Both the position numbers and the translations under genes were made by a program. DNA of 53,760 bases from a virus (lineage: Duplodnaviria > Caudoviricetes), in IMG/VR virus record IMGVR_UViG_3300046000_006960, positions 1-53,760 of that record; one strand, given 5' to 3'. The stretch's first letter is position 1. Each line of letters opens with the position of its first letter. Shown in pieces: positions 18,350-53,760 of this stretch. The notes beneath the pieces were generated by a model. It was not told where the DNA came from, ran no database searches, and saw only the letters and a program-made list of their open reading frames with translations.

Positions 18350-18380
18350 CAAAGTTACAACAAATATTTGACATTTCCAA
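18350..18380 (-). promoter_or_regulatory. Bacteroidota -33/-7 promoter for the exonuclease gene
   Basis: TTGG-N19-TAACTTTG. Confidence 0.75.
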
Positions 18381-37687: not shown

Positions 37688-39126
37688 TCGTTTTTATTTA
37701 AAACAATACAGTCTGTTGATAAAACTGTTTTAGCAATAGATACTGCGTTTTCTAATGCACACCTAGTAACCTTAAGTGGATCTATGATATTTTGTTCAAA
37801 CATATTTTTAATATGATTAGCATTAATTATGTTTTTAGGCGTATCTAAAGCTTTAAAAATAGCACATGCTTCAGGATACATAAACATATCCATAATCATA
37901 TCGTTAGCCCAATATAATGCTAATCCACCGCCTTCCACAATGCCTTCTTCTAATGCGCATGCTACAGCTTTAACCGCATCATCATATCTATCGTACTTTT
38001 CTTTAACCTCAATTTCAGATCCACCGCCTACTTTAATTAGGGCAACTTTAGCTGTTAGATTTTCAATACGTTTATTAATGATTTCTACATCATGCTTAGT
38101 TAGTTCTTTTGATTTAGATAACTCTGTAAGATTATCTATAATATCAGCAACATCAACATCGTCATGCTTAATTAGTAAAGAATTATTTTTAGTTATTTTA
38201 CAAGACTTTAGTTTTCCAAAAGTATTTGCTGTAGATTTGCCAATGGCAGTCATTATTTCTGCTCCAGTAAAGTCAGATATGTCTCTAAGGAAATCTTTTC
38301 TTACAGGGCCAAATCCTGGTGTTTTAATAACACATAATTGAATGTTACCACTCAATACATTAGATTCTAACTTACGTAATTCTTTTTCAACTATATCTTC
38401 TGTTATAATTAATAGCGGTTTCCCTGATTGTGCAAATGTATTTAGTACTCCTTGTAATGGTATTAAATCTGTTAATTTACCATCTATAATTAATACGGAT
38501 GGATCGATAAATAAACACTCTCCTTTTTTAAGGTTATTTACGAAATGCTTAGAAAAATAAGATACATCTAATTGCATTCCATCAATTAACTCTACAGAAT
38601 CTTTTTGATTAGTAGACTCCTCAACTTTAATTATATTAGAAAAATTGTAAGCTTGTTGAATAATATCGCCAATCTGTATATCGTTATTAGCAGATATACT
38701 TGCAACATATTTAATCTCTTCATGTTTTAATTCTTTTGAATTAAGTTTTAATTGTTCAATTACTTTTGGTATAATTTCATCAAACGCTTTATTAATTTCA
38801 TTTGAATCAAAATCTTTTAAGTTTTGTATAAAAGCATTAGCTAATACAATTGCAGTGGTAGTTCCATCTCCAGCTAAATCAACTTGCAATTCAGCAACTT
38901 CTTTTACTAATTGTGCGCCTATGTTTTCTATTGCATTTTTAAAACTTACCTCTCTAGCTACAGATACGCCGTCCTTTGTTATTTTATATTTATTAAACTC
39001 AGTGCTATCTGGTATAATTACTGTTTTACCATTAGGCCCCATTGTTTTTGACACTGCGTCACATAACTTTTGGATTCCATTAAACAATAAGTTTCTTGCT
39101 TCTTTTTCAAAGTATATTTCTTCCAT
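37678..39126 (-). CDS. groEL: Phage-encoded GroEL-like chaperonin
   Basis: TMGPNG, ITKDGVSVA, AGDGTTTA, PGFG, IKVGGGSE, EEGIVEGGG, IIDPLKVTRCALENAVS. Confidence 0.93.
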   Translation of the reverse strand: MEEIYFEKEARNLLFNGIQKLCDAVSKTMGPNGKTVIIPDSTEFNKYKITKDGVSVAREVSFKNAIENIGAQLVKEVAELQVDLAGDGTTTAIVLANAFIQNLKDFDSNEINKAFDEIIPKVIEQLKLNSKELKHEEIKYVASISANNDIQIGDIIQQAYNFSNIIKVEESTNQKDSVELIDGMQLDVSYFSKHFVNNLKKGECLFIDPSVLIIDGKLTDLIPLQGVLNTFAQSGKPLLIITEDIVEKELRKLESNVLSGNIQLCVIKTPGFGPVRKDFLRDISDFTGAEIMTAIGKSTANTFGKLKSCKITKNNSLLIKHDDVDVADIIDNLTELSKSKELTKHDVEIINKRIENLTAKVALIKVGGGSEIEVKEKYDRYDDAVKAVACALEEGIVEGGGLALYWANDMIMDMFMYPEACAIFKALDTPKNIINANHIKNMFEQNIIDPLKVTRCALENAVSIAKTVLSTDCIVLNKNEWN

Positions 39127-42511: not shown

Positions 42512-42777
42512 TAATTTAGTCTTTTAATTATTAAAGCATTATCAAACATATTAAAGTTTTCATCTAAAAATAATTGCTCTCTTATCTTAGTATTCTTATC
42601 TGCTACATATATCTGTGCAGTGAGAACTTGTTTATCATTTCTAAATAACCCTACATTAATATCTAGTAGTCTATCATTACTTCTCCATTTATGAGTATAG
42701 TAATTATATAAGTTAAATAAATCTTTTCTATTTTGTATTAAATCTCTTCTAATTGTATCGTGTATTTGTTCTATCAT
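42511..42777 (-). CDS. Hypothetical protein
   Basis: 88 aa, TAATG coupling. Confidence 0.55.
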   Translation of the reverse strand: MIEQIHDTIRRDLIQNRKDLFNLYNYYTHKWRSNDRLLDINVGLFRNDKQVLTAQIYVADKNTKIREQLFLDENFNMFDNALIIKRLN

Positions 42778-42965
42778 TATTCGCTTGTGTGTTTTAAAAA
42801 TTGACTTAAACTCATATGCTTAAATCTTTCATTTAATTTATATTCTAATGTTCCTTTTGTATTTACATTTTTAATATATTCTTCTCTTTCTAAAAATATT
42901 TCTAGATCTGAATAATTTCTATTTAAATCAATACCTTTCCATTTATTTTTTATATCTTCTTCCAT
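42777..42965 (-). CDS. Hypothetical protein
   Basis: 62 aa. Confidence 0.5.
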   Translation of the reverse strand: MEEDIKNKWKGIDLNRNYSDLEIFLEREEYIKNVNTKGTLEYKLNERFKHMSLSQFLKHTSE

Positions 42966-43137
42966 CTGGCTTAGTAGGATGTTGTTTGTTATATTCCTTA
43001 AACAACATAGAATTAAATTTATCTATGTCAAATCCTTTTTCTGTTTGATAACTTGTTTTACTAATCCTATTATTATCTGGCAGTATAACTTTATCTTTTA
43101 ACCATATTATCTTTTTAAACCAATCTCTATAATTCAT
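42943..43137 (-). CDS. Hypothetical protein
   Basis: 64 aa. Confidence 0.5.
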   Translation of the reverse strand: MNYRDWFKKIIWLKDKVILPDNNRISKTSYQTEKGFDIDKFNSMLFKEYNKQHPTKPDGRRYKK

Positions 43138-43360
43138 TATATCTATTTACTAAGTATCTTGTAAACTCATTATTATCAAATCTTTGTTGTAAATCCATAA
43201 ACAATTTAGCAAATGTTTTACTACCATCTGGTAAATATATATGATATTTATCTTGTGTTATTCCTTCTGACCAAGCCATAAATCCATTAGGATGTTCTGG
43301 AGAATTTATAACTGTCGCTTCAAAGTAAGGACATTCTAATTCATTATTTTCATCACTCAT
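43127..43360 (-). CDS. Hypothetical protein, first gene of the late operon
   Basis: 77 aa, directly downstream of the promoter at 43386-43416. Confidence 0.55.
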   Translation of the reverse strand: MSDENNELECPYFEATVINSPEHPNGFMAWSEGITQDKYHIYLPDGSKTFAKLFMDLQQRFDNNEFTRYLVNRYNEL

Positions 43361-43385
43361 TTAACTTCTAATTTTAAATCTTGTA

Positions 43386-43416
43386 CAAAGATACAACAAA
43401 TAAATGACATATGCAA
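43386..43416 (-). promoter_or_regulatory. Bacteroidota -33/-7 promoter heading the late operon
   Basis: TTGC-N19-TATCTTTG. Confidence 0.75.
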
Positions 43417-43465
43417 GTTTTTTTGCAATTATTTTTAAAAAAAGTGAAAATAATTTAAAAGGCAT

Positions 43466-43500
43466 AAAAAAACCCACTAAAACAATAAGTTAAAGTGGGT
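43466..43500 (-). terminator. Intrinsic terminator closing the candidate ncRNA
   Basis: ACCCACT...AGTGGGT followed by a T run. Confidence 0.7.
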
Positions 43501-43816
43501 GTAATAAAAGTAATTGCAATTTAGCCCTGTCTTTTTTAGACTGTCCAGACTACTTTATCTTAAACATAAGTTTCCTATAACTATAACGTTGTTATAAGTT
43601 TACTTTAAATAGTTATTTAATTAATATATATGGCGAGGTTTCCCACAAAACTGTTGTTCTGCAGAAACCCTTGGCTTACCAGTGTTATTGAAGTCGTCAT
43701 ACCTCGCTAAACCCGTACCTACATTATCTATCCTCTTTTGCCCTGGACTGTGATTGCAATAATCACTATAATGTAGCAACAATATCCTTAATAAGTTGCC
43801 TGTTTATTTTACTGAG
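43466..43816 (-). ncRNA. Candidate ~350-nt structured ncRNA of unknown family
   Basis: Bounded by a consensus promoter and a terminator. Longest ORF seen is 27 codons. Many helices, with G-U pairs valid only on the minus strand. Confidence 0.55.
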
Positions 43817-43819
43817 CCA

Positions 43820-43850
43820 CAAAGATACAACATTTATTTGACAAATCCAA
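43820..43850 (-). promoter_or_regulatory. Bacteroidota -33/-7 promoter
   Basis: TTGG-N19-TATCTTTG. Confidence 0.75.
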
Positions 43851-44116
43851 ATTTTTTAGTAACTATTTTCATATATTTTATATTACCTATAGCTTTTATT
43901 GTAAAAAATATTTTTTAAAAAAATTTTTCAAAACGTTTTTTATTAATGTAAGAGTGAGATAACCCAACATCATGCCCCGACCTTTTTCAAATTTTGGGAT
44001 ATACCCGTGGCTTTTTGCTACAGGTATCTCACAAATTGTCTAACTTGAATAATACGCGATGAATCAGCGATTATTCTACAAAACAAAGCAGGCGTGCTTA
44101 ATAATACGTTATAGTT

Positions 44117-44581
44117 ATGGAAATTACTAAAGAAAGAGCAGAACAAATCATTAACAAACGTTCGTTAGTTGAGCAAGCAGGTGTTCCTTACAAAAAAGTA
44201 GAAGTACTTTATGTAGGATATACTGACGCAGACGGCGACGCTTTTGTTAATGATGAAACAGGCGAAGAATTCGCTATTGTTAGTTTCAATGCAGTAACAC
44301 CTTATCAGCTTGAGAAAGCTGTTGAAGATTTTGTTGCAGAAGATTATGATTCAGCTACTAATCATAAAGTATCTATGCGTATGCCTATTAAACAAGCTAA
44401 TCTTGTTTCTAAAGGTTGTCCAGGTACTTTAATTCTTCGCGAGGCTGAAGTAGAAGTTGACGGAGAGAAAGTAATTGGTTTATTTGCTAAATCATTTACA
44501 CCTGCGCAAGCTGTTGATAGTAAGAAAGTATCTCTTGCAGATTTACTTGCTAAAGCATCAGCACCAGCTGTTACAGCTTAA
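44117..44581 (+). CDS. Hypothetical acidic protein, first gene of the plus-strand early region
   Basis: 154 aa, GCT/GTT/GAA-rich codons suggesting high expression, own terminator. Confidence 0.7.
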   Translation: MEITKERAEQIINKRSLVEQAGVPYKKVEVLYVGYTDADGDAFVNDETGEEFAIVSFNAVTPYQLEKAVEDFVAEDYDSATNHKVSMRMPIKQANLVSKGCPGTLILREAEVEVDGEKVIGLFAKSFTPAQAVDSKKVSLADLLAKASAPAVTA

Positions 44582-44588
44582 TAATTAT

Positions 44589-44617
44589 AGGCTACCTTCG
44601 GGTAGCTTATTTTTTTT
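44589..44617 (+). terminator. Intrinsic terminator
   Basis: AGGCTACC-TTCG-GGTAGCTT followed by a T run. Confidence 0.85.
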
Positions 44618-44878
44618 GACATTCATAACTATATTAGCTACGTATTCAGTACGTGAGTAGTAGCCACATATTTTTGATTTAGACATCGTGAGTATTTTGT
44701 TTGACTTTGATTGTGTGAGTGGTAGTACGTGAGTATATCCCTTCACATTCCAATTGCGTACCATCTCACAAACAAACTTTGCAAAATAGTAAATATATAT
44801 AGCTTTTTAAGTTATTTCCCATCTACTATCAAACACCTAATTCGTAACTAATTAAAAACAAATAAATACAAAATCATT

Positions 44879-45007
44879 ATGAAATTTCAAATAATTGGAC
44901 AAGACAATTTTATTTACGGACTATTCCCTACAAAAATTTGTGCTAATTTAGCACTAAAAGGTATGAATATTATGCTTGAGGGATTAAGAGTAGAAAAGAT
45001 TAAATAA
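44879..45007 (+). CDS. Small hypothetical protein (42 aa)
   Basis: MKFQIIGQDNFIYGLFPTK..., with an A-rich Bacteroidota-type leader ending ATTATG. Confidence 0.5.
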   Translation: MKFQIIGQDNFIYGLFPTKICANLALKGMNIMLEGLRVEKIK

Positions 45008-45637
45008 AAAAATCAACTACCAACAGATGATTGGCATACTTTAGAGGAGCATTAAAGGACATAACATATGCTATAGTTGATTTAAATTCATAACACATAA
45101 GGTTTTTAGGTAGCACTCTTATTGAGTTGTAAACTATTGTAAAAAATTACCATTGTGTTGCAACCCTAGAAGCGGGGTTCAATGTAGATATAATGCGAAG
45201 TGAAACTACATTTATTTCAAATACTTTGATATAAAACTAATCACCATTTTATAATTAAGCCAATTAAGGCCAGTGACGAGCTGTTTATATTATGTTTATT
45301 CAATTACAGAGAAGGATTAGACTCTCTTGATATATCAAAGTATTAACTATTCAGAACCATTTAAGGTTGTTATTAAACGAGTTGTAAGTTTAAGTTTAAT
45401 AACGTAAAATTAACAAAAGAATAACTTTCATTATGGGAAATCAAAATCGTTTTATCTTTATTGCTTTAGATATGTAAGTCGTTACAGTAGAGTTTAGCAA
45501 ACTCGATCAGAAAAAACTCAATAACTTTCCAAGATGTTGAGGACACCAGTTTCTATACAATACATGTTGATATATGTTCGACCATATGTTAAGTATAGTT
45601 TTAGGTGTAAAACACAAAACTAATTAAATTAAATATT

Positions 45638-45835
45638 ATGAAAAACACAAAAATTATGGTAGCTTTTATAGCTATAACATTATGCACTTGGTGCTTAATA
45701 GGTCTGATAGTATATACATTATCTTCAATGAATTACAAAGAATCAATGTGTAATCAAGGAACATTTTTCTTAATGTTATTAGTAGGTTGGCTTCCAGGAG
45801 TAATTGTTTCAGCTGATTTAGAAGATGAATTATAA
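45638..45835 (+). CDS. Small two-TM membrane protein
   Basis: 65 aa with two hydrophobic helices. Confidence 0.65.
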   Translation: MKNTKIMVAFIAITLCTWCLIGLIVYTLSSMNYKESMCNQGTFFLMLLVGWLPGVIVSADLEDEL

Positions 45836-45843
45836 CTAATATT

Positions 45844-45966
45844 ATGAAAAAAAGATTAAGATTTTATTGGGACAACAAAGAAGTTATTGGTATTTTAGCA
45901 TTGTTATTGTTTTCTTTAACAATGCTATTAATTATAATCAACAATGCTATTGAATATGTATTGTAA
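45844..45966 (+). CDS. Small membrane protein (40 aa)
   Basis: MKKRLRFYWDNKEVIGILALLLFSLTMLLIIINNAIEYVL. Confidence 0.5.
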   Translation: MKKRLRFYWDNKEVIGILALLLFSLTMLLIIINNAIEYVL

Positions 45967-46225
45967 TTACAATATTAATAACTTTAACTACAACAAAGAA
46001 AACAACACACTAATTGGAAATGAAGAGGAGTTACATATAGACAGTGTAACTCCTTATTTTCCTAACTGTAGAAAACAATTCTTTGTTAGTAATGATAAAA
46101 CTAAAAACTTTAGAAGATTTAGATTATCATTAGAAACGTGCTATTATTATATATTTGAATCAGAAGACAAAATCAAATGTATAGTAAATAAAAAGCTGAA
46201 TATGTTTTCAGCAGGTAACTTTTAA
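45944..46225 (+). CDS. Hypothetical protein (start may be 45956)
   Basis: ORF track, 93 aa. Confidence 0.55.
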   Translation: MLLNMYCNYNINNFNYNKENNTLIGNEEELHIDSVTPYFPNCRKQFFVSNDKTKNFRRFRLSLETCYYYIFESEDKIKCIVNKKLNMFSAGNF

Positions 46226-46234
46226 ATAAATAAA

Positions 46235-46330
46235 ATGTCAAAGAAAATTAAATTATATGGTAGATTCTTAAGAAAAGAACTATCATTCAAAAAACTAGCG
46301 AAAGCCGCTAGTGAAGTTCAAAATTATTAA
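46235..46330 (+). CDS. Small basic peptide (31 aa)
   Basis: MSKKIKLYGRFLRKELSFKKLAKAASEVQNY. Fills the gap between genes. Confidence 0.4.
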   Translation: MSKKIKLYGRFLRKELSFKKLAKAASEVQNY

Positions 46331-46348
46331 CAAATTAAATTAAACATT

Positions 46349-46699
46349 ATGGGAACAATAATAGTTATTGGATTAGCAATATTTTTATTGATATCAGCAA
46401 TTGTATTGTCAAAAACAGAAACTCCTGTTCATTTAGATGGTGCAAACAAACCAATTACATCTCAAGACGGACTTGAAGATGTAATTAAAGAACCTGTTGT
46501 AAATACAGATATTGTATTAGACAAAAAAGAATTAGAAGTAGAGTTTGTAGAAAAACAACCTACTAAAAAATTAAAAGGAATTAGGCAATTATCGGATCAT
46601 ATTGCTACAGTTGTAGAAAATAATCCTGATTCTAAAAAACATTTAAACAAACGTCAACGTAAAACAGTTGATAAAATTGTTAAAGAAAAGAAACAATGA
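46349..46699 (+). CDS. Membrane-anchored hypothetical protein
   Basis: N-terminal TM, charged C-terminus. Confidence 0.6.
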   Translation: MGTIIVIGLAIFLLISAIVLSKTETPVHLDGANKPITSQDGLEDVIKEPVVNTDIVLDKKELEVEFVEKQPTKKLKGIRQLSDHIATVVENNPDSKKHLNKRQRKTVDKIVKEKKQ

Positions 46700-46971
46700 A
46701 TTCTGGTAGTTCATTACCATTTGTTAAGACAGTAAATTAATAAAAAACTACCAATGCTCGCTGTTAGGCTACACACACAACAAAAAGGGTTTATATTACG
46801 ATAGCAAACCAGAAACCCTGAAAGACCAAGGTTGGTAAATAGTAGTTCGCGGGAGAGCACCTACTTTAAAAATAGCGATCCCATCATGGGGGTGCCTGGT
46901 TTTGACAGGTTACTAATAATTAATACAATCAGCCAGAGAGATAACTGTAAACTAAGGTGAATTAAATAAAC

Positions 46972-47073
46972 GACAAAAATACAACAGCTCAAACAAGAGC
47001 AAACATGCAAGTGGTTCATAACATCTTAAATGGTGGAACTTCAGTATCAACAGAAATGTTGATTGCTGCGTAA
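46972..47073 (+). other. tmRNA tag reading frame, (A)DKNTTAQTRANMQVVHNILNGGTSVSTEMLIAA
   Basis: Resume codon GAC inferred from the AAATAAAC context. 33 codons, then TAA. Confidence 0.8.
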
Positions 47074-47435
47074 TATTTTTAGATTATTTTAAGGATTTCC
47101 TTGTTAGATTAAACAAGGTGGTGGAATCACTGATTAATCAGTTGACCTCGTGTATCTAAACACATAAAACTATAGTGAAGCTGTATAAATTGTATTAAGG
47201 AATGTAATTTGGACGGGAGTTTGAGAACGGACTCACTATGTAGGGATATGTAGTTAAAAATTGGAAGAATTGCTGGAACACTAAAGCCATTTAGGTATGT
47301 ACAAAATTACAGTACACTAAGTAGTCAATCAGCAGCCGAGCTTACTGGCGGAAGTAAGAAGGTTCAACGACTAGGGAATCTAAGGATAGCCCACAGCCTC
47401 CAACACCTAGAACAGGTGATGATATAGTCTAATCA

Positions 47436-47855
47436 CTAGTGAAAACTAGTGCAGAAAAATAGCCTTTCATAAGCTAATTTTCTATCGTATTCTATTATAG
47501 AATATTTACCATTCTTTTTAGTTACAATATTATGATACTTTAATATAGTATTGATTCTATGTAATTTTTTAGAATGATGAGAATTTAATAATTCACAAAG
47601 CTTGTAACATACTTGATTGCTACTTGCAGATAAAGAATAGCCAATAGAATGGCTTGTCTTTTTAGCTGGTTTTGTACTGATTGAAAGTTTTAAATTATAA
47701 TTTAACAATAAATATTGTTGAATTTCTAATAAAAGATTTTTATCAGTATTTGTAAAATCAATTTTAATACAACGAAATTTGTCATCTTTAGATTGATAAG
47801 ACATTGTAATTGAGCCATCTGCATCAAAAAAACCTGAAATGTAATTTAAGTCCAT
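47436..47855 (-). CDS. Single-motif LAGLIDADG homing endonuclease, antisense within the intron
   Basis: MDLNYISGFFDADGSI motif and IDFTNTD. 139 aa. Confidence 0.9.
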   Translation of the reverse strand: MDLNYISGFFDADGSITMSYQSKDDKFRCIKIDFTNTDKNLLLEIQQYLLLNYNLKLSISTKPAKKTSHSIGYSLSASSNQVCYKLCELLNSHHSKKLHRINTILKYHNIVTKKNGKYSIIEYDRKLAYERLFFCTSFH

Positions 47856-47889
47856 AATAATAGGATAAGGGTTATATATACGTTAGGTG

Positions 47890-47920
47890 CAAATATACAA
47901 AATTTAATTACAAAAAACAA
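47890..47920 (-). promoter_or_regulatory. Bacteroidota -33/-7 promoter inside the intron, driving the LAGLIDADG gene
   Basis: TTGT-N19-TATATTTG, 34 nt upstream of the ATG, same spacing as the six other copies. Confidence 0.7.
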
Positions 47921-48257
47921 GTAAATGTTAAATTATTTTATAATAATTTTTATAATGAATTATAAATGCGATTCTCCCCACCTCCACTATATTTAATCTC
48001 TAAAATGGCAGAGAATAGGATTATATTAAAGTCACTGCATCCACTAACGATAATTGTATTTATATACAATTGTTTATTAAGTCTAAATCAGTCTAAACAA
48101 TATAATGCAAATTTGTGAGCAGTACGCCACTCACTTAAATAGAACAAAATTAAGGGTCTTAATAAATGTTAAAGATATTGAATCTGTCTATTATATATAG
48201 ACCCTTATTTTTTAAATTATAAATTATAACAAAATTATTAACTAACAATTAAATATT

Positions 48258-48437
48258 ATGAGTAATACAATAAAAGAACATGATGAAAAGCGTAAAGATT
48301 TATGGATAAAAGCTTGGTGCGCAACTGCAAACGCAAATGATTGTAAGCATACGAGTACAGCTACAAGATACGCAGATGAGGCGTTAAAAGCTTTTGATGA
48401 TAGATTTCCAAAGCCAACAATCACTAAAGACGCTTAA
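48258..48437 (+). CDS. Small hypothetical protein (59 aa, not in the ORF track)
   Basis: MSNTIKEHDEKRKDLWIKAWCATANANDCK...RYADEALKAFDDRFPKP, with an ATTATG start context. Confidence 0.65.
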   Translation: MSNTIKEHDEKRKDLWIKAWCATANANDCKHTSTATRYADEALKAFDDRFPKPTITKDA

Positions 48438-48557
48438 TAATGAATAATATACAATATATAAGATTATGGTTTCCAGATGGTGAATTTACCTATGTACATA
48501 TTTGGAATACTATTGATTTAAATAATTGTTTAAAACTTAACTAAAACTAAAAACATT

Positions 48558-48887
48558 ATGAAAACAGAATTAAAATCTATATCTCAGCTTGAAAAAGCAG
48601 GATATAAAGGAACAAAAGTGATGTCAATGATTAAAGCTATTGAATCACAAGAAATTTTTAAACATTTACGACTTGTACAACAAGATGAATTTAGTAGATG
48701 TAAAAACAAATACAATAAGTTAGGTTATTTAACGCAACCATACTTTAGTTATTTATGGAACCTTTATTGGAACTTTGTATTAAATGATTTTAGATATGAA
48801 TCGTCAAAATCATGGACAGAGGTAACAAAGATTAAGAATGTTCAAACAGAACATATTGGAATGAAAATATTAAAATCTTTTAAATAA
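48558..48887 (+). CDS. Hypothetical protein
   Basis: 109 aa. Confidence 0.6.
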   Translation: MKTELKSISQLEKAGYKGTKVMSMIKAIESQEIFKHLRLVQQDEFSRCKNKYNKLGYLTQPYFSYLWNLYWNFVLNDFRYESSKSWTEVTKIKNVQTEHIGMKILKSFK

Positions 48888-48983
48888 AATAAAATATATC
48901 CAACGAGAACAAAAGTTCGGGAAGAAAGCAGTATAATACGTCTTGGTTCTGCATATTTTATATAAACTAATTAATTAAAAATT

Positions 48984-49157
48984 ATGAACACACAAAACAC
49001 ACCAAAAATTACTGCGAACAATAGTAACAGTAATAAGAATAAATTCTTCAAAAAAGAAGTAAAATTCAATTCACAACAACAACTTCAAGCTTATTTAGCT
49101 GATGCTGTTGTAAGTAACAAGCGTAAAGCATTCAATCTTACTGTTAAGATTGGTTAA
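48984..49157 (+). CDS. Small hypothetical protein (57 aa)
   Basis: MNTQNTPKITANNSNSNKNKFFKKEVKFNSQQQLQAYL..., ATTATG context. Confidence 0.6.
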   Translation: MNTQNTPKITANNSNSNKNKFFKKEVKFNSQQQLQAYLADAVVSNKRKAFNLTVKIG

Positions 49158-49168
49158 TATATTATATT

Positions 49169-49441
49169 ATGTTACGCCGTTTCAAACGATACATTGCTTA
49201 TAAGTTTATAGGTTATGTACCTGGTACTAGTAAATTAGCTACAATGGAAGCTAAAAGACTATCAAAACATATATTTGAGAATTGGGACGAAAACTCTCAA
49301 TTAATTATCTTAGATGATATTAAAATGAATTTAATTGAAATGAGAGAGAATCAAATTAAAAACAAAGAGATAGAAATTATTCAAGCTCAACAAAATTTAA
49401 AATCATTGCAATATAACTTTAGTAAATTGCAATTGAAATAA
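49169..49441 (+). CDS. Hypothetical coiled-coil protein
   Basis: 90 aa. Confidence 0.55.
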   Translation: MLRRFKRYIAYKFIGYVPGTSKLATMEAKRLSKHIFENWDENSQLIILDDIKMNLIEMRENQIKNKEIEIIQAQQNLKSLQYNFSKLQLK

Positions 49442-49446
49442 TAAAA

Positions 49447-49521
49447 GTCTTAATCGTACAATAGTGAGTATTCTCTATATTTTTTATAGAGACAATTTAG
49501 GTTCAAGTCCTAATTAAGATA
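49447..49521 (+). tRNA. tRNA-like element with an aberrant U-rich anticodon arm (Lys-UUU-like or pseudo-tRNA)
   Basis: Acceptor GTCTTAA/TTAAGAT, D stem GTAC/GTAT, anticodon stem CTCTA/TAGAG around 9 nt TATTTTTTA, T arm TTAGG-TTCAAGT-CCTAA. Confidence 0.6.
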
Positions 49522-49591
49522 TCGTATTTAGATAAAAGAAAAAGGTGCGTTCGTCAGTACAGGGAAGAGGTCCTATCTAAATTGGAACATA

Positions 49592-49663
49592 ATCTGTATC
49601 TGCTAAGGGTAAGCTGCCTAGCTTGGTGTTAGGAGAACGTGGGTTCGATCCCCATTACAGGTT
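49592..49663 (+). tRNA. tRNA-Pro(TGG), non-canonical
   Basis: Acceptor ATCTGTA/TACAGGT, anticodon arm CCTAG-CTTGGTG-TTAGG, T arm GTGGG-TTCGATC-CCCAT. Confidence 0.7.
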
Positions 49664-49800
49664 CAAATAAACTTCATAATGTTTATTTATTAGTTAGTTA
49701 ATAATGTGAGTGAAACTTAGCGTCCAGTCTGTGGAATAGGAGTAGCTCACATTTTTTAAATATTAGAAAACAATTAAAAACAATAAAAAATTAAATAATT

Positions 49801-49929
49801 ATGACAATATGGAAAATAGTATGTGTGACATACTTTCAGCTAGGAGTTAATGTTATAGGATTACCTATAGGTATTAATCATTATCAATGGGAAGCAAATA
49901 AAATTAAAACATCAAAATATCATGGATAA
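49801..49929 (+). CDS. Small hypothetical protein (42 aa)
   Basis: MTIWKIVCVTYFQLGVNVIGLPIGINHYQW..., A-rich leader. Confidence 0.4.
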   Translation: MTIWKIVCVTYFQLGVNVIGLPIGINHYQWEANKIKTSKYHG

Positions 49930-50015
49930 AAAAGAAATTGATTATTTAGATCAAATGGATTTAGATGGATGGTTTAATGGCCAAGTTATATGTTCCTAAT
50001 TAATAAATAAATAAA

Positions 50016-50711
50016 ATGAAAAAAGAAAAATATGTGGAATGCTTACAAGTTGTAAGTAATGTTTTTTACAAAGTAGGTAAATTGTATAAAATAATTGACG
50101 AATCTTTATTGCCATCTCAATTAAATATAATGGCAGAAAATGGAACTGAATCTAAAATAATAAATTGGACTGAAGATTTTTTATCAGCAGGAAATAATTG
50201 TTTTAAAATAGTAGAATGTTATTGTAATCAAGAAAAATGTAAAGACCAAGTGTTATCAAAAGAATTTAACAACGATATTTCAACTGTACAATCTTCAGAA
50301 GGAGCTGTATTTGAATTAGGCGATAAAATTACTGTATTTACAAGAACTTCTCCAAACAAAGGTAAAATGTTTACAATTCAAGGTTTTAGATGGAATAATA
50401 ATAAAACATCTATATGTGCTCTTACTGAATCACATGGTAAAAATGGTATTGGTTTAGACAAAATAGAATTATATGTTGAAACTAAAAAAGAATTAAGTTT
50501 ATTCGAACAAGCTAAAATTAAATACCCTGCAGGATGTAGAGTAAACAATGCAGGTATTATTTGAGTTGCGGCAATCCATTATCCAGGAGATTTTACATGT
50601 GGACCTGTTTTTGAAGATAAAATTAATTACATAACAAATAATTCATTAGAAGGGGATGGTAGAACAATTTATAATAAGCTAACAAAATCGTGGGCTGAAA
50701 TAATAATTTAA
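50016..50711 (+). pseudogene. Hypothetical gene interrupted by one in-frame TGA (50562-50564)
   Basis: The 182-aa ORF continues in frame for 48 codons after the TGA to TAA at 50711, 3 nt before the next ATG, ending IYNKLTKSWAEIII. Confidence 0.55.
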
Positions 50712-50714
50712 ATT

Positions 50715-51464
50715 ATGAAAAAATATAAATTAATAAAAGAATATCCGGGCAGTCCAATACTAGGATCTTTTACAGAAGGCACAAGTGAATCAGGGAAGTC
50801 TTGTAAAGTTATTAGACCAGACGGAATTACTTTTAGTAATTCTTTTGGATGGTATTGGGTGGAAAATTATCCAGAATTTTGGGAATTAGTAATTGAAAAA
50901 GATTATAAAGTGTTATCTATGAAATGTAATATATCAGGGTGTTTTCATTCTAATAATTGTGAATCAAGTATTGATTTTATGTTAGAAAATAAATATTCTA
51001 TTCATTCAGTTAAAAGGTTATCTGATGGAGAAATATTTACTATTGGTGATTTATGTAGCCCTATAGGTAAATATGATGACAATAAATGTATTTTAAATAG
51101 AATATGGTTTTGTGATCCAGGATGTCTAAGGTTATCAAGTGATAATTTTACATTAGGAATTAATGATATTCAAAAAGTTAAACAACCGTTATTTACAACT
51201 AAAGACGGTGTTGATATTTTTAAAGGAGATTCTTATTGTAAAGTAAATCATTATTCTGATTATAGTATTGTATCTGGATTTACAGCTCAAGGATCACATG
51301 AAAACTATGAAGGTTTAAAATTCTCAACCAAAGAATCTGCTCAAGAATATGTTTTAATGAATAAGCCTTGTTTGTCTGTTAGAAATATTATGTCTGAGAT
51401 ATCTTTAACAGATACTGAAAAAAAAACACTAAAAAGTTTAATCGAAAAAAAATTAAATAAATAG
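50715..51464 (+). CDS. Hypothetical protein, partly paralogous to the upstream gene
   Basis: KYKLIKEYPGS, IHSVKRLSDGEIFTIGD, LFTTKDGVDIFKGD. Confidence 0.7.
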   Translation: MKKYKLIKEYPGSPILGSFTEGTSESGKSCKVIRPDGITFSNSFGWYWVENYPEFWELVIEKDYKVLSMKCNISGCFHSNNCESSIDFMLENKYSIHSVKRLSDGEIFTIGDLCSPIGKYDDNKCILNRIWFCDPGCLRLSSDNFTLGINDIQKVKQPLFTTKDGVDIFKGDSYCKVNHYSDYSIVSGFTAQGSHENYEGLKFSTKESAQEYVLMNKPCLSVRNIMSEISLTDTEKKTLKSLIEKKLNK

Positions 51465-51466
51465 AT

Positions 51467-51637
51467 ATGAATTTAACAACAGTAACGTATCATTTTGAAG
51501 ATGGTACAAAGCAGGTTTCTCAAATTAACAAAGCAATGTTGAGAGATGAAAAAGGAAGATTAAGATCTCAAGAACAAATCATGAAAGTATTTGATGATAC
51601 AGCTCATGATCTTGGAGCAATTAAGTTTGAATTGTAG
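51467..51637 (+). CDS. Small hypothetical protein (56 aa)
   Basis: MNLTTVTYHFEDGTKQVSQINKAMLRDEKGRLRSQEQIMK... Confidence 0.6.
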   Translation: MNLTTVTYHFEDGTKQVSQINKAMLRDEKGRLRSQEQIMKVFDDTAHDLGAIKFEL

Positions 51638-51813
51638 TGATTTCAACTATAATTATTACTGTTATTTTTATAGTAGCTATTATATTTTTTTTAGGTTTTA
51701 TTCTACATTTAGGATATTTAATAATAACTCCTAGTAATAAATTATCAACAGATGATTTTGGAAAAAAGAATATGATAATAAAATACTTTAAACGTAAAAA
51801 TGATTGTAAATAA
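51637..51813 (+). CDS. Small membrane protein (GTG start, 58 aa)
   Basis: Long hydrophobic N-terminus. Overlaps the stop of the previous gene. Confidence 0.45.
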   Translation: MISTIIITVIFIVAIIFFLGFILHLGYLIITPSNKLSTDDFGKKNMIIKYFKRKNDCK

Positions 51814-52198
51814 AAAACCATTAGCAGGAAATATATTTGTAAGAATTAATAATAAATTCTACGAAATACCTGATGTGCCATTATTTAAAACTAAATCTAA
51901 TAAAGATGTGTATCTTTGTGGTTTATCAATGATTAATGAAGGTTATAATAAATACAAAACAATAGCTACTGTAAAAATAATAGAGGAAAATAAATATGAA
52001 GAAGTTCCTTTTGAATTGATTAAAAAATTTATTGATTATAAGTTTAGAAAAATTGTAATAGATAATGATGAATATGACATCCCATTACATATAATAGACG
52101 AACTAAAAAGTAAATTAAGTAAATTACATAAAAAAGACATAAGGTCTTTAAATTTAATAAAAGAAGAATATAATAAATATATTTTTAAACAAAATTAA
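51800..52198 (+). CDS. Hypothetical protein
   Basis: 132 aa. Confidence 0.6.
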   Translation: MIVNKKPLAGNIFVRINNKFYEIPDVPLFKTKSNKDVYLCGLSMINEGYNKYKTIATVKIIEENKYEEVPFELIKKFIDYKFRKIVIDNDEYDIPLHIIDELKSKLSKLHKKDIRSLNLIKEEYNKYIFKQN

Positions 52199-52200
52199 TT

Positions 52201-52401
52201 ATGGTCAAACAATATTCCCAATTATCATTGGCTGTAGACTTAGTTAGTTATGAATACAAAACCTCTAATCCTATAATTATATCTGAAAAAATTGAAGAAG
52301 ATTTAGGATTAGAGTATACTATTCATCAAGTAGCTGATTATATGGATATTAATAAATTTGAAGATTATGAAAAACAATCAAACATGATACAATATGTGTA
52401 A
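52201..52401 (+). CDS. Hypothetical protein
   Basis: 66 aa. Confidence 0.6.
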   Translation: MVKQYSQLSLAVDLVSYEYKTSNPIIISEKIEEDLGLEYTIHQVADYMDINKFEDYEKQSNMIQYV

Positions 52402-52585
52402 CAATTTAGTACAATGTCCTGAATGTATTGGTGCAAAAGAAATAATGATCCCTAAAGAAACTAAAGGATTTAAATATGTTTCTTGCAACTTATGTAATGG
52501 AGAAGGAAAAGTTCATCCACAAATAGCAGATGATTTCATATTTGCTATGACTGAAGATGATTTTGAAACAAACGATGATTGGTAA
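52394..52585 (+). CDS. DnaJ-type zinc-finger miniprotein
   Basis: CPECIGAK and CNLCNGEG. Confidence 0.65.
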   Translation: MCNNLVQCPECIGAKEIMIPKETKGFKYVSCNLCNGEGKVHPQIADDFIFAMTEDDFETNDDW

Positions 52586-52965
52586 TGGAAAAAGAATTTA
52601 TACCTTACGAACAAGCATTAGTTCTAAAAGAATTAGGATTTGATGAACCTTGTTTAGTTTTTTGGACAAATACTCCTAAATATAAAGGAGATAACATACA
52701 ATTATGTATTACTGATGGGATGCATGGTTATTCTCCTGATTCAATTTCATTTAAACAAGATTTTCTTAGAGAAGGTGAAGTTTTAGCTCCACTTTACCAA
52801 CAAGCATTTAGATGGTTTAGAGATAAACATAATTTACATTGCAATATAGATCCGTGGGGTTATTGTATTTACGATGATAATCAAACTGAAAAAACAGGTT
52901 TTAAGTCTTATAAAAAATCACAAACTGAATGTTTAAAGAAATTAATAGAAATAGTAAAAGAATGA
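52579..52965 (+). CDS. Conserved Bacteroidota-phage hypothetical protein
   Basis: EFIPYEQALVLKELGFDEPC...APLYQQAFRWFRDKH. Confidence 0.7.
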   Translation: MVMEKEFIPYEQALVLKELGFDEPCLVFWTNTPKYKGDNIQLCITDGMHGYSPDSISFKQDFLREGEVLAPLYQQAFRWFRDKHNLHCNIDPWGYCIYDDNQTEKTGFKSYKKSQTECLKKLIEIVKE

Positions 52966-53357
52966 AAAAAAACTTAATTGCAGTATATGGTTCATTACGA
53001 AAAGAAATGGGTAATGATTACATATTAAAAAATGCTGAATATTTAGGAGAATTTAAGACAGAACCTATTTTTAGCTTATATAGTCTAGGATCATATCCAG
53101 GACTAAAAGAAAATGGATCTACTTCAGTAGTAATGGAAGTTTATGAAGTAGATGATGTTACAGCTAATCGCGTTGATAGTCTTGAAGGATATTCTCCTGA
53201 TTCACCAGCTACATTTTACGATAAAATTCCAATTAAAACACCTTACGGTGATGCTAGTGTCTATACTTACGTAAATAACATACCAGAAGATAGATTAGTA
53301 GAGTCAGGTGATTGGAAAGAATATAAAACAGCGTATTTTTCACCAACAATGAATTAA
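52962..53357 (+). CDS. Gamma-glutamylcyclotransferase (GGCT/AIG2-like)
   Basis: IAVYGSLR, YPGL, EVYEV, DSLEGY, SGDW. Probable start is ATG 52962 rather than 52929. Confidence 0.85.
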   Translation: MKKNLIAVYGSLRKEMGNDYILKNAEYLGEFKTEPIFSLYSLGSYPGLKENGSTSVVMEVYEVDDVTANRVDSLEGYSPDSPATFYDKIPIKTPYGDASVYTYVNNIPEDRLVESGDWKEYKTAYFSPTMN

Positions 53358-53375
53358 TAATTTAAAAACAAAATT

Positions 53376-53699
53376 ATGGAATTAAGTAAAATAAAGAATA
53401 CTTGTTCAATGTTTGAACTTGGTGATGTTAATTATCTTGAAGATAAGACAAAAAAAAATTTTGATACATTTATTATTCAAGAGTTTGTTAAATTAGGTAT
53501 TAATCCTAATAAAGAAAACTATGCAATAATCTATAATTGCACAAATTCAACAAATTATAAAGCAGCAAAAAAATTAGGCTTTAAACAAGTTGCTAGATAC
53601 AAAGGGTATTCTCACGATAGAGATGTAAAAGTATTAATTTGGAAATCAAACAAATACAGTTTAATAGAAAAACTTGAAGTGTTTTTTAAATTCAGATAA
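53376..53699 (+). CDS. Hypothetical protein
   Basis: 107 aa, with AAKKLGFKQV weakly GNAT-like. Confidence 0.55.
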   Translation: MELSKIKNTCSMFELGDVNYLEDKTKKNFDTFIIQEFVKLGINPNKENYAIIYNCTNSTNYKAAKKLGFKQVARYKGYSHDRDVKVLIWKSNKYSLIEKLEVFFKFR

Positions 53700-53760
53700 A
53701 TTAAATGATAGAAAATTCTTATATACTTGATTTCCAAGTATTGAAAGAACAGAATATCCC

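Follow-up and report, generated by a model that had tools for sequence, protein, structure and literature searches.

The window analysed here, a 53,760-nt stretch of viral DNA, carries on its plus strand a tmRNA gene whose T-loop is split by a 747-nt group I intron (47222–47968), and on the opposite strand, within the intron, a gene for a 139-amino-acid LAGLIDADG homing endonuclease (47436–47855). Judged by similarity of its structural genes, the window is a contig of a crAss-like phage (Crassvirales) with a Bacteroidota host, an assignment that is new here. Its major capsid protein most resembles the one of Cellulophaga phage phi14:2 (63% identity), followed at about 45% by gut phages of the crAss-like group, and PHROGs family matches were found for the terminase, portal and capsid. 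Phage phi14:2 is classified within the Crassvirales and carries an uninterrupted tmRNA gene. The phi14:2 tmRNA is annotated as hypothetical proteins.

The 5' exon of the tmRNA gene (46888–47221, plus strand) begins with the 5' strand of the acceptor stem, GGGGGTG (46888–46894), holds the tag reading frame and the pseudoknot region, and ends with the 5' strand of the T-stem, GGGAG (47215–47219), followed by the first two T-loop bases, TT (to 47221). It was delimited by ARAGORN, which placed the start at 46888 on intron-deleted joins, by the Rfam tmRNA model and by contigs from runs X2 and X6. The 3' exon (47969–47987, plus strand), located by ARAGORN, a rule-based search and reading of the sequence, consists in order of the rest of the T-loop (CGATT), the 3' strand of the T-stem (CTCCC), the 3' strand of the acceptor (CACCTCC) and the bases A and C. 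Pairing of the acceptor strands, as read off the sequence, yields a G3-U70 pair, and the tag peptide ends in LIAA. ARAGORN called a tmRNA only once approximately 47220–47968 had been removed; 12 of 750 junction trials were positive, all of them near 47219–47226/47967–47974, as were 2 of 3604 rule-limited trials. The Rfam tmRNA model matched 46895–47218 at 21.9 bits (E 2e-6), which is below its gathering score of 47 because it was scored on a split gene with the 3' part lying 750 nt away. A dedicated tmRNA_intron model is absent from Rfam.

The rule-based search required a U at position -1 paired to G in P1 and a G as last intron base and, on the exon side, a rebuilt 5-bp T-stem with a 7-nt loop and a ..TCCA tail. 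It returned two sites, of which only 47221/47968 combines the CACCTCCAC end with a T-arm of tmRNA type (GGGAG/CTCCC); the alternative pair (5' site 47203, last base 48396) would form an A+T-rich stem and was taken as a chance match. Short contigs from runs X2 and X6 match the window through 47221 and then end or diverge, and two contigs of metatranscriptome X23, which are strandless, cover 46887–47150 and 46915–46967, that is, the 5' exon only. In none of the four runs, all of them assembled into contigs, was a join spanning the intron reported, a result that is neutral as to splicing and antisense transcription. Joining at 47221/47969 restores the T-loop TTCGATT. The insertion (TT/CGATT) falls between T-loop nucleotides 2 and 3, at position 3 of the four published subsites, and the introns of relatives occupy positions 3, 7, 8 and perhaps 2.

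The ribozyme core, P1 to P9, spans 47222–47451 on the plus strand. In a focused search the Rfam model RF00028 matched 47184–47451 at 80.2 bits (gathering score 50, E ~2e-20); a default-filter Rfam pass across the whole window detected neither the intron nor the tmRNA. In P1 (47217–47234) the exon sequence GAGUU (47217–47221) pairs with the intron sequence GACUC (47230–47234), bringing a U47221-G47230 pair to the 5' splice site, and the rule-based search placed at 47968 the terminal guanosine that is needed at the 3' splice site. RNAalifold predicted 52 pairs for 18 aligned loci, the P7 pseudoknot being outside the model, and 38 of them show compensatory (double) changes. The U-G pair of P1 is retained in 17 of the 18 loci, and the exon T-stem covaries with the internal guide (GAGTT with GACTC, GGGTT with GACCC), the P1 pairs showing double changes in 3–4 of the sequences. 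By these compensatory changes, the ribozyme appears functional.

Less regularity was seen in the way the distant 3' splice site might be chosen. The internal guide segment GAGAACG (47223–47229) could form a P10 with the 3' exon CG(A)UUCUC (47969–47976), for which RNAduplex gave -5.3 kcal/mol, a value equalled by 4% of 300 shuffles. Pairing at a level of 5% or less was found in only 9 of 20 loci (the window and 8 others), and as a general selector of the 3' splice site P10 fails in 11 of the 20. Folding of the 3' tail (47856–47975) yielded no closing helix (MFE -8.1 kcal/mol, z = +1.55, 188 of 200 shuffles as good), and the inverted repeats flanking the nuclease cassette, which might have pointed to an inversion, were confined to A+T-rich matches at chance level.

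The nuclease gene is read from an ATG on the minus strand to a stop codon at 47436–47438. The initial annotation had described an antisense, single-motif LAGLIDADG ORF of 139 amino acids within a tmRNA intron, and Pfam, the count of motifs, the Rfam core match and ARAGORN agree on this. Pfam matches are to LAGLIDADG_3 (PF14528, 37.9 bits, cutoff 22.5) and LAGLIDADG_1 (PF00961, 28.2 bits, cutoff 23.1), and the sole motif is ISGFFDADGS at residues 6–15. An AF2 model (pLDDT 93.8) shows one alpha-beta-beta-alpha-beta-beta-alpha domain with additional helices. The top Foldseek matches are I-Vdi141I, I-CreI and I-TnaI (E 5e-5 to 1e-4); 70 PDB chains were matched at E <=0.001, and those among the matches listed are LAGLIDADG enzymes throughout. 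A PDB sequence search gave weak matches only (best E 5e-4), and I-AniI occurs among the weak matches of both sequence and fold. The PHROGs label for the protein, HNH endonuclease (phrog_5046), was taken as a mislabel because Pfam and the fold indicate LAGLIDADG.

Residues D11, D13, G14 and K97 are among 17 columns that are invariant in all 29 homologues, and D11 and D13 probably correspond to the catalytic aspartate of I-CreI. The ORF is full-length in 16/16 loci of the antisense-in-intron set, which comprises the window and 15 other viral contigs, and dN/dS is 0.17–0.44 in 11 of 12 pairs, the remaining pair being saturated. By these ratios the ORF is under purifying selection across the 16 loci and, given also the invariant motif and the confidently predicted fold, the protein looks functional. 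ESMFold2 gave a homodimer score of 0.58, where the best control reached 0.02, although this pass may reflect the model's memory of solved I-CreI-type dimers. Among proteins of solved structure, 20 of 30 homomers (pairs of one chain) and 1 of 23 monomers attain the mark used, and the homodimer runs showed a contact agreement of at least 88% and a partner pLDDT of at least 87. The modelled interface is the LAGLIDADG helix (residues 4–14), with D13 facing D13. The homodimeric action that the initial annotation cites for single-motif LAGLIDADG proteins is supported here by the model only, and a homodimer would most likely be the acting form of the nuclease.

At its 3' end the nuclease gene overlaps the P9 hairpin, CACTAGU-GAAA-ACUAGUG (47434–47451, plus strand), the reverse complement of which, TGC ACT AGT TTT CAC TAG, reads C T S F H stop and supplies the last five codons and the stop; counted with its stop codon, the ORF has 16 nt within P9. 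As an RNA helix P9 is well supported by covariation, with 89.7% of cells paired against 54.0% after shuffling (0/500 shuffles as high) and with changes on both sides in 6 of its 7 pairs. At locus L013 the usual stop is lost and the ORF extends 62 nt into the core. It had been claimed that this DNA is used on both strands. The overlap is real, but from the sequence comparison it looks less like a dual use by design than like a variable C-terminal tail that reads into an RNA-constrained helix. The P9 complement was also considered as a terminator; there is no U-run after it on the minus strand, and the idea was therefore dropped.

Ahead of the nuclease gene lies a promoter-like site (47890–47920, minus strand) consisting of TTG (47920–47918), a 20-nt spacer and TATATTTG (47897–47890), which ends 34 nt upstream of the ATG. 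In Bacteroidota promoters the -33 and -7 elements are separated by about 19–21 nt. At the window's site the spacing is 20 nt, TATATTTG fits the Bacteroidota -7 box TAnnTTTG, and the -33 element is cTTG only, not TTTG. The consensus of TTTG at -33 and TAnnTTTG at -7 has been described for Bacteroidota (PMC6847099, PMC9723704), with the -33 motif reported as 'much less evident' (PMC6847099). The flavobacterial -7 box has been placed at -12 to -5 (PMC9723704), and the nuclease transcript is therefore predicted to start near 47885, with a 5' UTR of ~30 nt (47856–47885, minus strand). This published placement agrees with the start near 47885 that had been predicted from the sequence alone.

The composite motif TTG-N20-TAnnTTTG occurs 7 times in the window compared with 1.99 +/- 1.37 in shuffled sequences, none of 100 shuffles reaching 7. 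The minus strand carries six of the 7 and, apart from the nuclease's own, its five sites lie just before minus-strand ORFs or in a divergent intergenic region. Among relatives, TTG-N20-TAnnTTT(G/A) is present 23–53 nt ahead of the ATG in 13/16 antisense-in-intron loci, and also in L034; for each locus, this relaxed motif turned up in 0.4–1.3% of 5000 shuffles of a 130-nt upstream region. The spacer differs in sequence among these 13 of the 16 loci but stays at exactly N20 in length. The strict motif is missing from L012, L029 and L033 (3/16 of the set) and from all 5 loci of the L023-L030 clade. A sigma-70-type scan returned 16 sites where 10.8 +/- 3.1 were expected, none of them at the proposed promoter, and was set aside because this is the wrong promoter type for the host phylum. 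The promoter noted initially as TTGT-N19 is thus the TTG-N20-TATATTTG site, of Bacteroidota type, enriched in the phage and conserved in relatives. Since the antisense ORF is under purifying selection, minus-strand transcription would be required, and the dedicated transcription unit proposed earlier would be the sole route to expression of an ORF that is intact at 16 loci.

By sequence comparison, the nuclease belongs to a family tied to tmRNA genes, new here, that occurs in four layouts at 25 viral and 6 bacterial (Bacteroidota) loci and is antisense in 21/25 of the former and 0/6 of the latter. L035, encoding a 922-amino-acid two-motif protein with no nearby tmRNA, was excluded from all counts. 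The whole layout of the window, with the ORF antisense in the intron after P9, recurs in 15 of 26 viral loci. In three others (L023, L025 and L026) the ORF lies antisense directly behind an intron-containing tmRNA gene; their introns are 194–225 nt long with the nuclease gene outside, and in L026 the splice sites were not fixed by the rule-based search, which found no P1. A further three (L028, L030 and L034) carry it antisense 1–10 nt behind an uninterrupted tmRNA gene, in four the ORF is sense within the intron, and one of the 26 is unrelated. In the 4 viral loci, and in 3 bacterial ones, the sense nuclease gene comes after P9 in a tmRNA intron of this kind. It had been suggested that the antisense orientation is what allows an intron in a non-coding RNA to express its nuclease; the sense-oriented relatives show that expression within a non-coding gene does not depend on this orientation, and other related nucleases lying wholly outside the tmRNA gene count further against the suggestion. 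A tblastn search with the nuclease against 50,697 phage records gave a sole match, 28% identical, in Sphingobium phage Lacusarx.

Identity to the window protein is 58–74% for 12 in-clade loci and 34–44% for L022, L029 and L033. In the protein tree the window clade (14 rows, support 100/100) comprises 13 in-intron genes together with L034, where the nuclease sits behind an uninterrupted tmRNA. The tree is unrooted, with deep-branch support of only 82/77 to 85/85; the antisense-in-intron label changes 4 times on it, and at least 2 of the changes are forced by well-supported branches. At L026, L034 and L038 the nuclease gene is located between two copies of the tmRNA 3' end, the duplicates matching at 12/12 positions by eye and at 10/14 and 14/14 in a separate comparison. 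At L034 a nuclease of the window clade adjoins an unbroken T-loop, TTCGATT, the very sequence that splicing would restore in the window, and therefore the loop alone cannot be the entire target.

Several other readings of the locus have to be weighed. The nuclease might have no promoter of its own, the TATATTTG match being a by-product of A+T-richness and any expression arising from stray or read-through minus-strand transcription. The window is A+T-rich, with 112 TAnnTTTG boxes over both strands and many weak sites in the sigma-70-type scan, the -33 element is partial, and the strict motif is missing in 8 of 24 relatives examined. Nevertheless, no minus-strand ORF of at least 90 amino acids lies upstream anywhere in 47856–53760, so that a source of read-through is lacking; the composite motif is 3.5-fold enriched, a level seen in 0/100 shuffles, its other sites precede minus-strand genes, and the exact 20-nt spacing has persisted in 13/16 loci while the spacer diverged. 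We consider a nuclease without a promoter unlikely. Homing endonuclease genes degenerate after fixation, and the ORF could also be a decaying passenger, formerly homing and now inert, which survives by its overlap or abutment with RNA elements; in a bacterial relative, L041, it is truncated to 43 amino acids, and the L013 ORF has run past its usual stop into the core. The full-length ORF in all 16 antisense-in-intron loci, the low dN/dS, the motif aspartates invariant in 29/29 homologues and the confident fold prediction speak against decay, which we regard as very improbable.

That the protein serves mainly as a splicing helper (maturase), or in some other phage role, rather than as a homing nuclease is suggested by the existence of bifunctional LAGLIDADG proteins such as I-AniI, itself one of the weak matches, and by the long unstructured 3' tail and weak P10 of many loci, which could need a helper. 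The same family, however, adjoins the uninterrupted tmRNA genes of L028, L030 and L034, which have no intron for it to assist, neither motif aspartate varies, and the best fold matches are to plain nucleases, all of which makes a mainly helping role quite improbable. It is least probable of all, to the point of being barely credible, that the ORF lies outside the functional tmRNA, with a nearer 3' splice site immediately after P9 and the distal 3' exon a relic. Such a layout is real in L023, L025 and L026, but in the window the rule-based search found no T-stem or acceptor sequence behind P9; only 47221/47968 gives a G+C-rich T-stem, a P1 and the ..TCCAC end, and ARAGORN needs the distal junction.

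The window element is a real mobile intron and nuclease composite, as observed in its anatomy, conservation, covariation, purifying selection and fold. We consider it likely that it represents a mobile group I intron with an autonomous antisense nuclease cassette in the T-loop of a phage tmRNA gene, and that the orientation of the cassette was inherited. The cassette, which would comprise a host sigma-A-type promoter (TTG-N20-TATATTTG), a leader of ~30 nt and the 139-amino-acid gene, lies after P9 on the opposite strand, where the intron is otherwise without structure, and the variable C-terminal tail of the gene continues into the P9 complement until a stop codon arises. Pre-tmRNA would be transcribed from the plus strand and the ribozyme would ligate U47221 to C47969, giving the spliced junction ...GGGAGUU/CGAUUCUCCC and restoring the T-loop UUCGAUU, while the nuclease would be translated only from the separate minus-strand mRNA. 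The homodimer most likely cleaves tmRNA genes that lack the intron, within the T-arm, an inverted repeat at the DNA level, and repair from an intron-bearing copy would then spread the intron and the nuclease gene jointly. In the lineage of the window the 3' splice site is beyond the nuclease gene, and therefore the intron encloses it.

From the comparison of layouts, the antisense orientation is best read as an inheritance from a free-standing gene arranged tail-to-tail behind the tmRNA gene. A fuller scheme, which joins a stepwise capture to a regulatory effect, is offered only tentatively. A tmRNA-targeting LAGLIDADG gene would have stood tail-to-tail behind an uninterrupted phage tmRNA gene, as at L028, L030 and L034; the tmRNA gene ahead of it would have gained a nuclease-less T-loop intron, as at L023, L025 and L026; and a duplicated tmRNA 3' end past the nuclease gene, of the kind seen at L026, L034 and L038, would have become the 3' exon, fixing an antisense gene within the ribozyme in the manner of the window. 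The mRNA of that gene would have to extend into the core of the ribozyme and into the 5' exon, and would in addition time or damp phage tmRNA maturation.

Introns in the tmRNA T-loop with a U at -1 and G as last base have been described (PMC11915505); subsite position 3 was found there only in class Bacteroidia, and a LAGLIDADG gene followed P9 in 4 of 23 nuclease-bearing introns among 844 founding sequences. The window's intron shares with those introns the T-loop location, position 3, the U at -1, the last G and the LAGLIDADG gene after P9. It differs in that none of the described introns exceeds 700 bp, whereas the window's has 747 nt and is in a phage, and its nuclease gene is on the opposite strand, the main text of PMC11915505 being silent on orientation. 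I-CreI, I-TnaI and I-Vdi141I resemble the window nuclease in size, single motif, fold (TM 0.52–0.64) and predicted motif-helix dimer, and they too are encoded in group I introns of structural RNA (rRNA) genes. Their genes are sense-oriented in their introns, the window nuclease is only 11–19% identical to them and its putative target is the tmRNA T-arm.

Some nuclear rDNA group I introns (PMC9548176) carry, like the window, a nuclease gene opposite to the ribozyme in a non-coding host RNA, and in both cases the gene therefore needs its own transcription unit. The nuclear introns have eukaryotic His-Cys box genes, spliceosomal introns and eukaryotic expression signals (PMC9548176), in contrast to the LAGLIDADG gene, bacterial promoter and phage tmRNA of the window, which is analogous in its working and not a member of that group. 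Literature searches on nuclease genes placed antisense in group I introns of bacteria or phages yielded eukaryotic nuclear and organellar examples only, and others may be in print.

The described cases of collaborative homing involve protein-coding genes and enzymes of HNH or GIY-YIG type. The window differs from them in its tmRNA host gene, LAGLIDADG enzyme and antisense merged form. In collaborative, or trans, homing in phages a nuclease-less intron is paired with a free-standing nuclease directed at the site where the intron inserts (PMC2988022). The short ORF-less introns of L023, L025 and L026, each with a free-standing nuclease gene adjoining, resemble this arrangement, and by its sequence organisation the window has the look of the merged product expected under the model.

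Standard pipelines miss the tmRNA genes of crAss-like phages, as is illustrated by the annotation of phi14:2 and by the loss of the window's intron in the default Rfam pass. Enzyme engineers may take an interest in small LAGLIDADG homodimers, if the modelled dimer holds, whose target is a palindromic stem-loop. For the biology of the introns themselves, the locus indicates that a convergent transcription unit can be tolerated within a group I intron of bacterial type, and that one stretch of DNA can serve both an RNA helix such as P9 and a protein tail, the constraint on the RNA prevailing. Group I introns that carry a homing endonuclease gene are a textbook case of selfish elements, and very few natural examples show how the intron and the nuclease gene unite. 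Here one nuclease family is found at every stage around one small target, the tmRNA 3' end, among phages as well as their Bacteroidota hosts and in either orientation, and this series of layouts makes the collaborative-homing model of their origin testable, both by comparison and at the bench.

The initial annotation placed a single-motif LAGLIDADG reading frame on the strand opposite the tmRNA intron, and this gene proved to be real. The ORF at 47436–47855 (−), encoding 139 residues, is the sole minus-strand ORF of at least 90 aa within 42,512–53,760; it matches Pfam LAGLIDADG_3 and LAGLIDADG_1, both over the cut-off, carries one motif and is predicted to fold as one LAGLIDADG domain (pLDDT 93.8). 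The predicted fold is closest to I-Vdi141I, I-CreI and I-TnaI, intron nucleases that act as homodimers, and a homodimer model scored 0.58 versus 0.02 for the control, the homodimer mark being reached by 20 of 30 solved homomers and one of 23 solved monomers. Contact agreement was at least 88%, pLDDT at least 87, and the modelled interface is formed by the motif helix, with D13 opposite D13. The model passes its controls and shows likeness rather than proof, because such dimers have already been solved. Motif residues G8–G14, including D11 and D13, and K97 are invariant in 29 homologues, and dN/dS lies at 0.17–0.44 in 11 pairs, one further pair being saturated, which argues that the gene is maintained for its protein; if it is so maintained, a minus-strand mRNA must exist.

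Neither intron nor tmRNA was detected in a default whole-window Rfam pass. A focused Rfam search yielded a group I intron core at 47184–47451 (+; 80.2 bits, E 2e-20) and a tmRNA match at 46895–47218 that spans the 5' four-fifths of the gene. ARAGORN called no tmRNA in the native sequence; one appeared once about 47220–47968 was deleted, at 12 of 750 trial junctions and at two of 3604 in a second trial set. Under the usual splice-site rules, exon 1 must close on a U that pairs with G in P1, the intron must finish on G, and the joined exons must restore a T-stem of 5 bp, its 7-nt loop and an acceptor end. The window has two such sites; one was dismissed for its A+T-rich stem (TATTA/TGATA) and lack of a tmRNA-like end. 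The real splice site is the other, with U47221 as the last base of exon 1, a 747-nt intron at 47222–47968 (+) and exon 2 starting from C47969. The spliced T-arm reads GGGAG-UUCGAUU-CUCCC, and G3-U70 is present in the acceptor stem. In short contigs from two other metagenomes the exon match ends exactly at 47221, after which the contig stops or diverges, while in a 101-nt contig from sequencing run X1 a related exon continues directly into GGACGGGAGTTCGAAT, giving an uninterrupted T-arm.

Insertion between T-loop nucleotides 2 and 3 corresponds to 'position 3' of the tmRNA database paper, where this subsite is confined to class Bacteroidia and no tmRNA intron exceeds 700 bp (PMC11915505), a maximum that the window's intron surpasses. 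The putative ribozyme is well supported by comparison, with compensatory changes in 38 of 52 predicted pairs across 18 related loci. Its P5 region carries an extension of about 37 nt (47283–47322), shared with viral locus L011 and lacking from the other 16 aligned loci. The 3' splice site lies 517 nt beyond P9. A P10 of 7 bp with one bulge (−5.3 kcal/mol) is possible, although P10 was better than 95% of shuffles in only nine of 20 loci, and a folding check detected no structure in the intron's 3' tail. The tag frame called by ARAGORN (46888–47221) is unusually long, with 33 residues ending STEMLIAA; tags of relatives vary in length and end in LIAA, LVAA or LAA.

The window is, on the sequence of its major head protein, a crAss-like phage, since this protein shares 63% identity with that of Cellulophaga phage phi14:2, classified in the Crassvirales, Steigviridae, and about 45% with those of gut crAss-like phages. 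The host is most likely a member of the Bacteroidota. The 53,760-bp IMG/VR virus contig has an estimated completeness of 53% and carries a minus-strand gene block at 1–42,511, including terminase, portal and major head protein, and small plus-strand genes with two tRNAs from 44,117 on. Adjoining the terminase gene, a 482-aa ORF (37678–39126, −) matches the PHROG 'chaperonin groEL' (E 5e-115). Contigs carrying the window or its relatives came from lake, freshwater and drinking-water metagenomes.

Two viral contig scans produced 26 loci, including seven from the first, and one bacterial genome scan produced six; an HMM constructed for the purpose located their ribozyme cores, ARAGORN and Rfam their tmRNAs, and the rules their splice sites. 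One viral locus (L035) was unrelated and excluded. The gene is arranged as in the window, antisense inside the intron after P9, in 15 viral loci (L010–L022, L029, L033). In three (L023, L025, L026) the intron is 194–225 nt and the gene lies antisense right behind the tmRNA 3' end; in three more (L028, L030, L034) it is antisense 1–10 nt behind an uninterrupted tmRNA. Four (L024, L027, L031, L032) carry it in sense within the intron after P9, the last intron base of L027 being the G of the stop codon. All six bacterial loci belong to Bacteroidota: three have the gene in sense inside the intron (L036, with its ribozyme core beyond the contig end, L039, from the isolate Marinoscillum pacificum, and L041, where the gene is truncated) and three in sense behind the tmRNA gene, past a terminator (L037, L038, L040). 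Of the 25 viral loci linked to a tmRNA, 21 thus carry the gene antisense (22 of 26 once the window is counted), against none of the six bacterial loci; these counts are given without a statistical test as the loci are mutually related.

The intron mostly occupies position 3, with position 8 used in L013, L021 and L033 and position 7 in L029. The L025 intron (2278–2471 in tmRNA orientation; 194 nt) lacks the P9 hairpin entirely and probably occupies position 2, which the published survey gives only for Anaerolineae and one member of the Myxococcota (PMC11915505). In phi14:2, a cultured relative, an uninterrupted 470-nt tmRNA with the tag GSSVQKLAMVA (ARAGORN; L009:2502–2971, KC821624 ~4031–4500) is an intron-less allele; the record shows only short hypothetical proteins there (gp011–gp014). 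L028 (805–850, −) and L030 (1351–1396, −) have an 8-nt T-loop, AGTCGGAG, between GAGGG and CCCTC in place of TTCGAxT. These tmRNAs were overlooked by ARAGORN and scored 75.8 and 62.6 bits with Rfam; the odd loop may represent a cleavage-resistant allele.

The ORF, stop included, shares 16 nt with the P9 hairpin (47434–47451, +) and its last residues are CTSFH, which bears out the earlier proposal that this DNA is used on both strands. P9 is overlapped in all 16 antisense-in-intron loci, by 7–20 nt in 15 and by 62 nt in L013, where the usual stop is lost. RNA constraint on P9 is strong: 89.7% of its cells are paired versus 54.0% in shuffles (0 of 500 as high) and 32–49% in slid controls, and six of seven pairs have changes on both sides. 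The protein tail past a conserved ...RLFF varies between homologues (CTSFH, CSIFQ, LPTFL, LVS and others). We read this as an ORF that just continues into the P9 helix until a stop arises, with both DNA strands used and the RNA dictating the sequence.

The candidate promoter of the initial annotation is present as TTG-N20-TATATTTG at 47920–47890 (−), 34 nt upstream of the nuclease ATG. It resembles sites described for the Bacteroidota housekeeping sigma factor, −33 TTTG and −7 TAnnTTTG (PMC6847099). Since the −7 box is reported to span −12 to −5 (PMC9723704), the predicted start falls near 47885, where it had been placed earlier. The composite motif occurs seven times in the window versus 1.99 ± 1.37 expected (0 of 100 shuffles reach seven), with six of the sites on the minus strand. 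Apart from the nuclease's own, these six precede minus-strand ORFs (10007, 18325, 32836) by 25–85 nt or fall within the divergent region at 42.5–44.1 kb. TTG-N20-TAnnTTTG is evidently, from this distribution, a promoter type used by the phage. Among the antisense-in-intron loci 13 of 16, and L034, carry TTG-N20-TAnnTTT[G/A] 23–53 nt upstream of the ATG with divergent spacers, the chance expectation being 0.4–1.3% per locus; L012, L029, L033 and the L023–L030 clade either lack the motif or only nearly match it.

Three of the seven window sites (18350–18380, 43386–43416, 43820–43850, all −) share a far longer near-identical string, TTG..A..TGTCA..TA..TGTTGTA.CTTTG, pointing to an extended, phage-specific family of promoters that would serve the minus-strand genes. 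Right after the −7-like box most loci (e.g., L013, L023, L025, L030; window 47862–47889) carry a leader, CC(A/C)CATCTCCA or CACCTCCACA, which looks like a tmRNA acceptor 3' end read in the direction of the nuclease gene; a small hairpin often follows or overlaps it. In the sense loci L024 and L027 (both 2470–2503), TTG-N20/21-TAnnTTT[G/A] ends 3–4 nt before the ATG; this site would yield a leaderless mRNA, so the sense copies, too, may be driven by a promoter of their own. No U-run follows the P9 complement on the minus strand, and a terminator-like hairpin is present only at 46833–46814, so the predicted transcript may cover the ribozyme core and the entire 5' exon in antisense.

In the protein tree the window falls in a clade of 14 rows (support 100/100) comprising 13 in-intron genes and the free-standing L034. 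The antisense-in-intron label changes four times, at least two changes being forced by well-supported branches, which implies more than one move of the gene between the 'inside' and 'behind' positions on this unrooted tree. The gene lies between two direct repeats of the tmRNA's 3' end in L038 (2436–2925; perfect 14/14 beyond the gene), L034 (~900–1430; 10/14, beyond the promoter) and L026 (2424–2910 in tmRNA orientation; 12 nt, beyond the promoter), and in L038 either copy could act as 3' exon. A duplicated 3' end past the gene would supply an alternative 3' exon whose use would enclose the gene within the intron. This agrees with the published idea of 'collaborative homing' (PMC2988022), which pairs an intron lacking a nuclease gene with a free-standing nuclease already adapted to that intron's insertion site. 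Antisense orientation would then be a relic of tail-to-tail placement, the direction of change being unrooted.

At the DNA level the T-arm forms an inverted repeat, which would make a suitable target for a homodimer, and all intron subsites lie within the loop. L034 retains an intact TTCGATT loop next to a window-clade nuclease, so the predicted recognition must reach into the stem or elsewhere.

Introns in the tmRNA T-loop, a few with LAGLIDADG genes after P9, have already been published (PMC11915505), as have antisense nuclease genes in eukaryotic nuclear rDNA introns (PMC9548176). Our literature search found no phage tmRNA intron and no group I intron of a bacterium or phage with its nuclease gene antisense, the orientation of the 36 nuclease genes of PMC11915505 lying outside its coverage. 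What the present loci add is a series of layouts.
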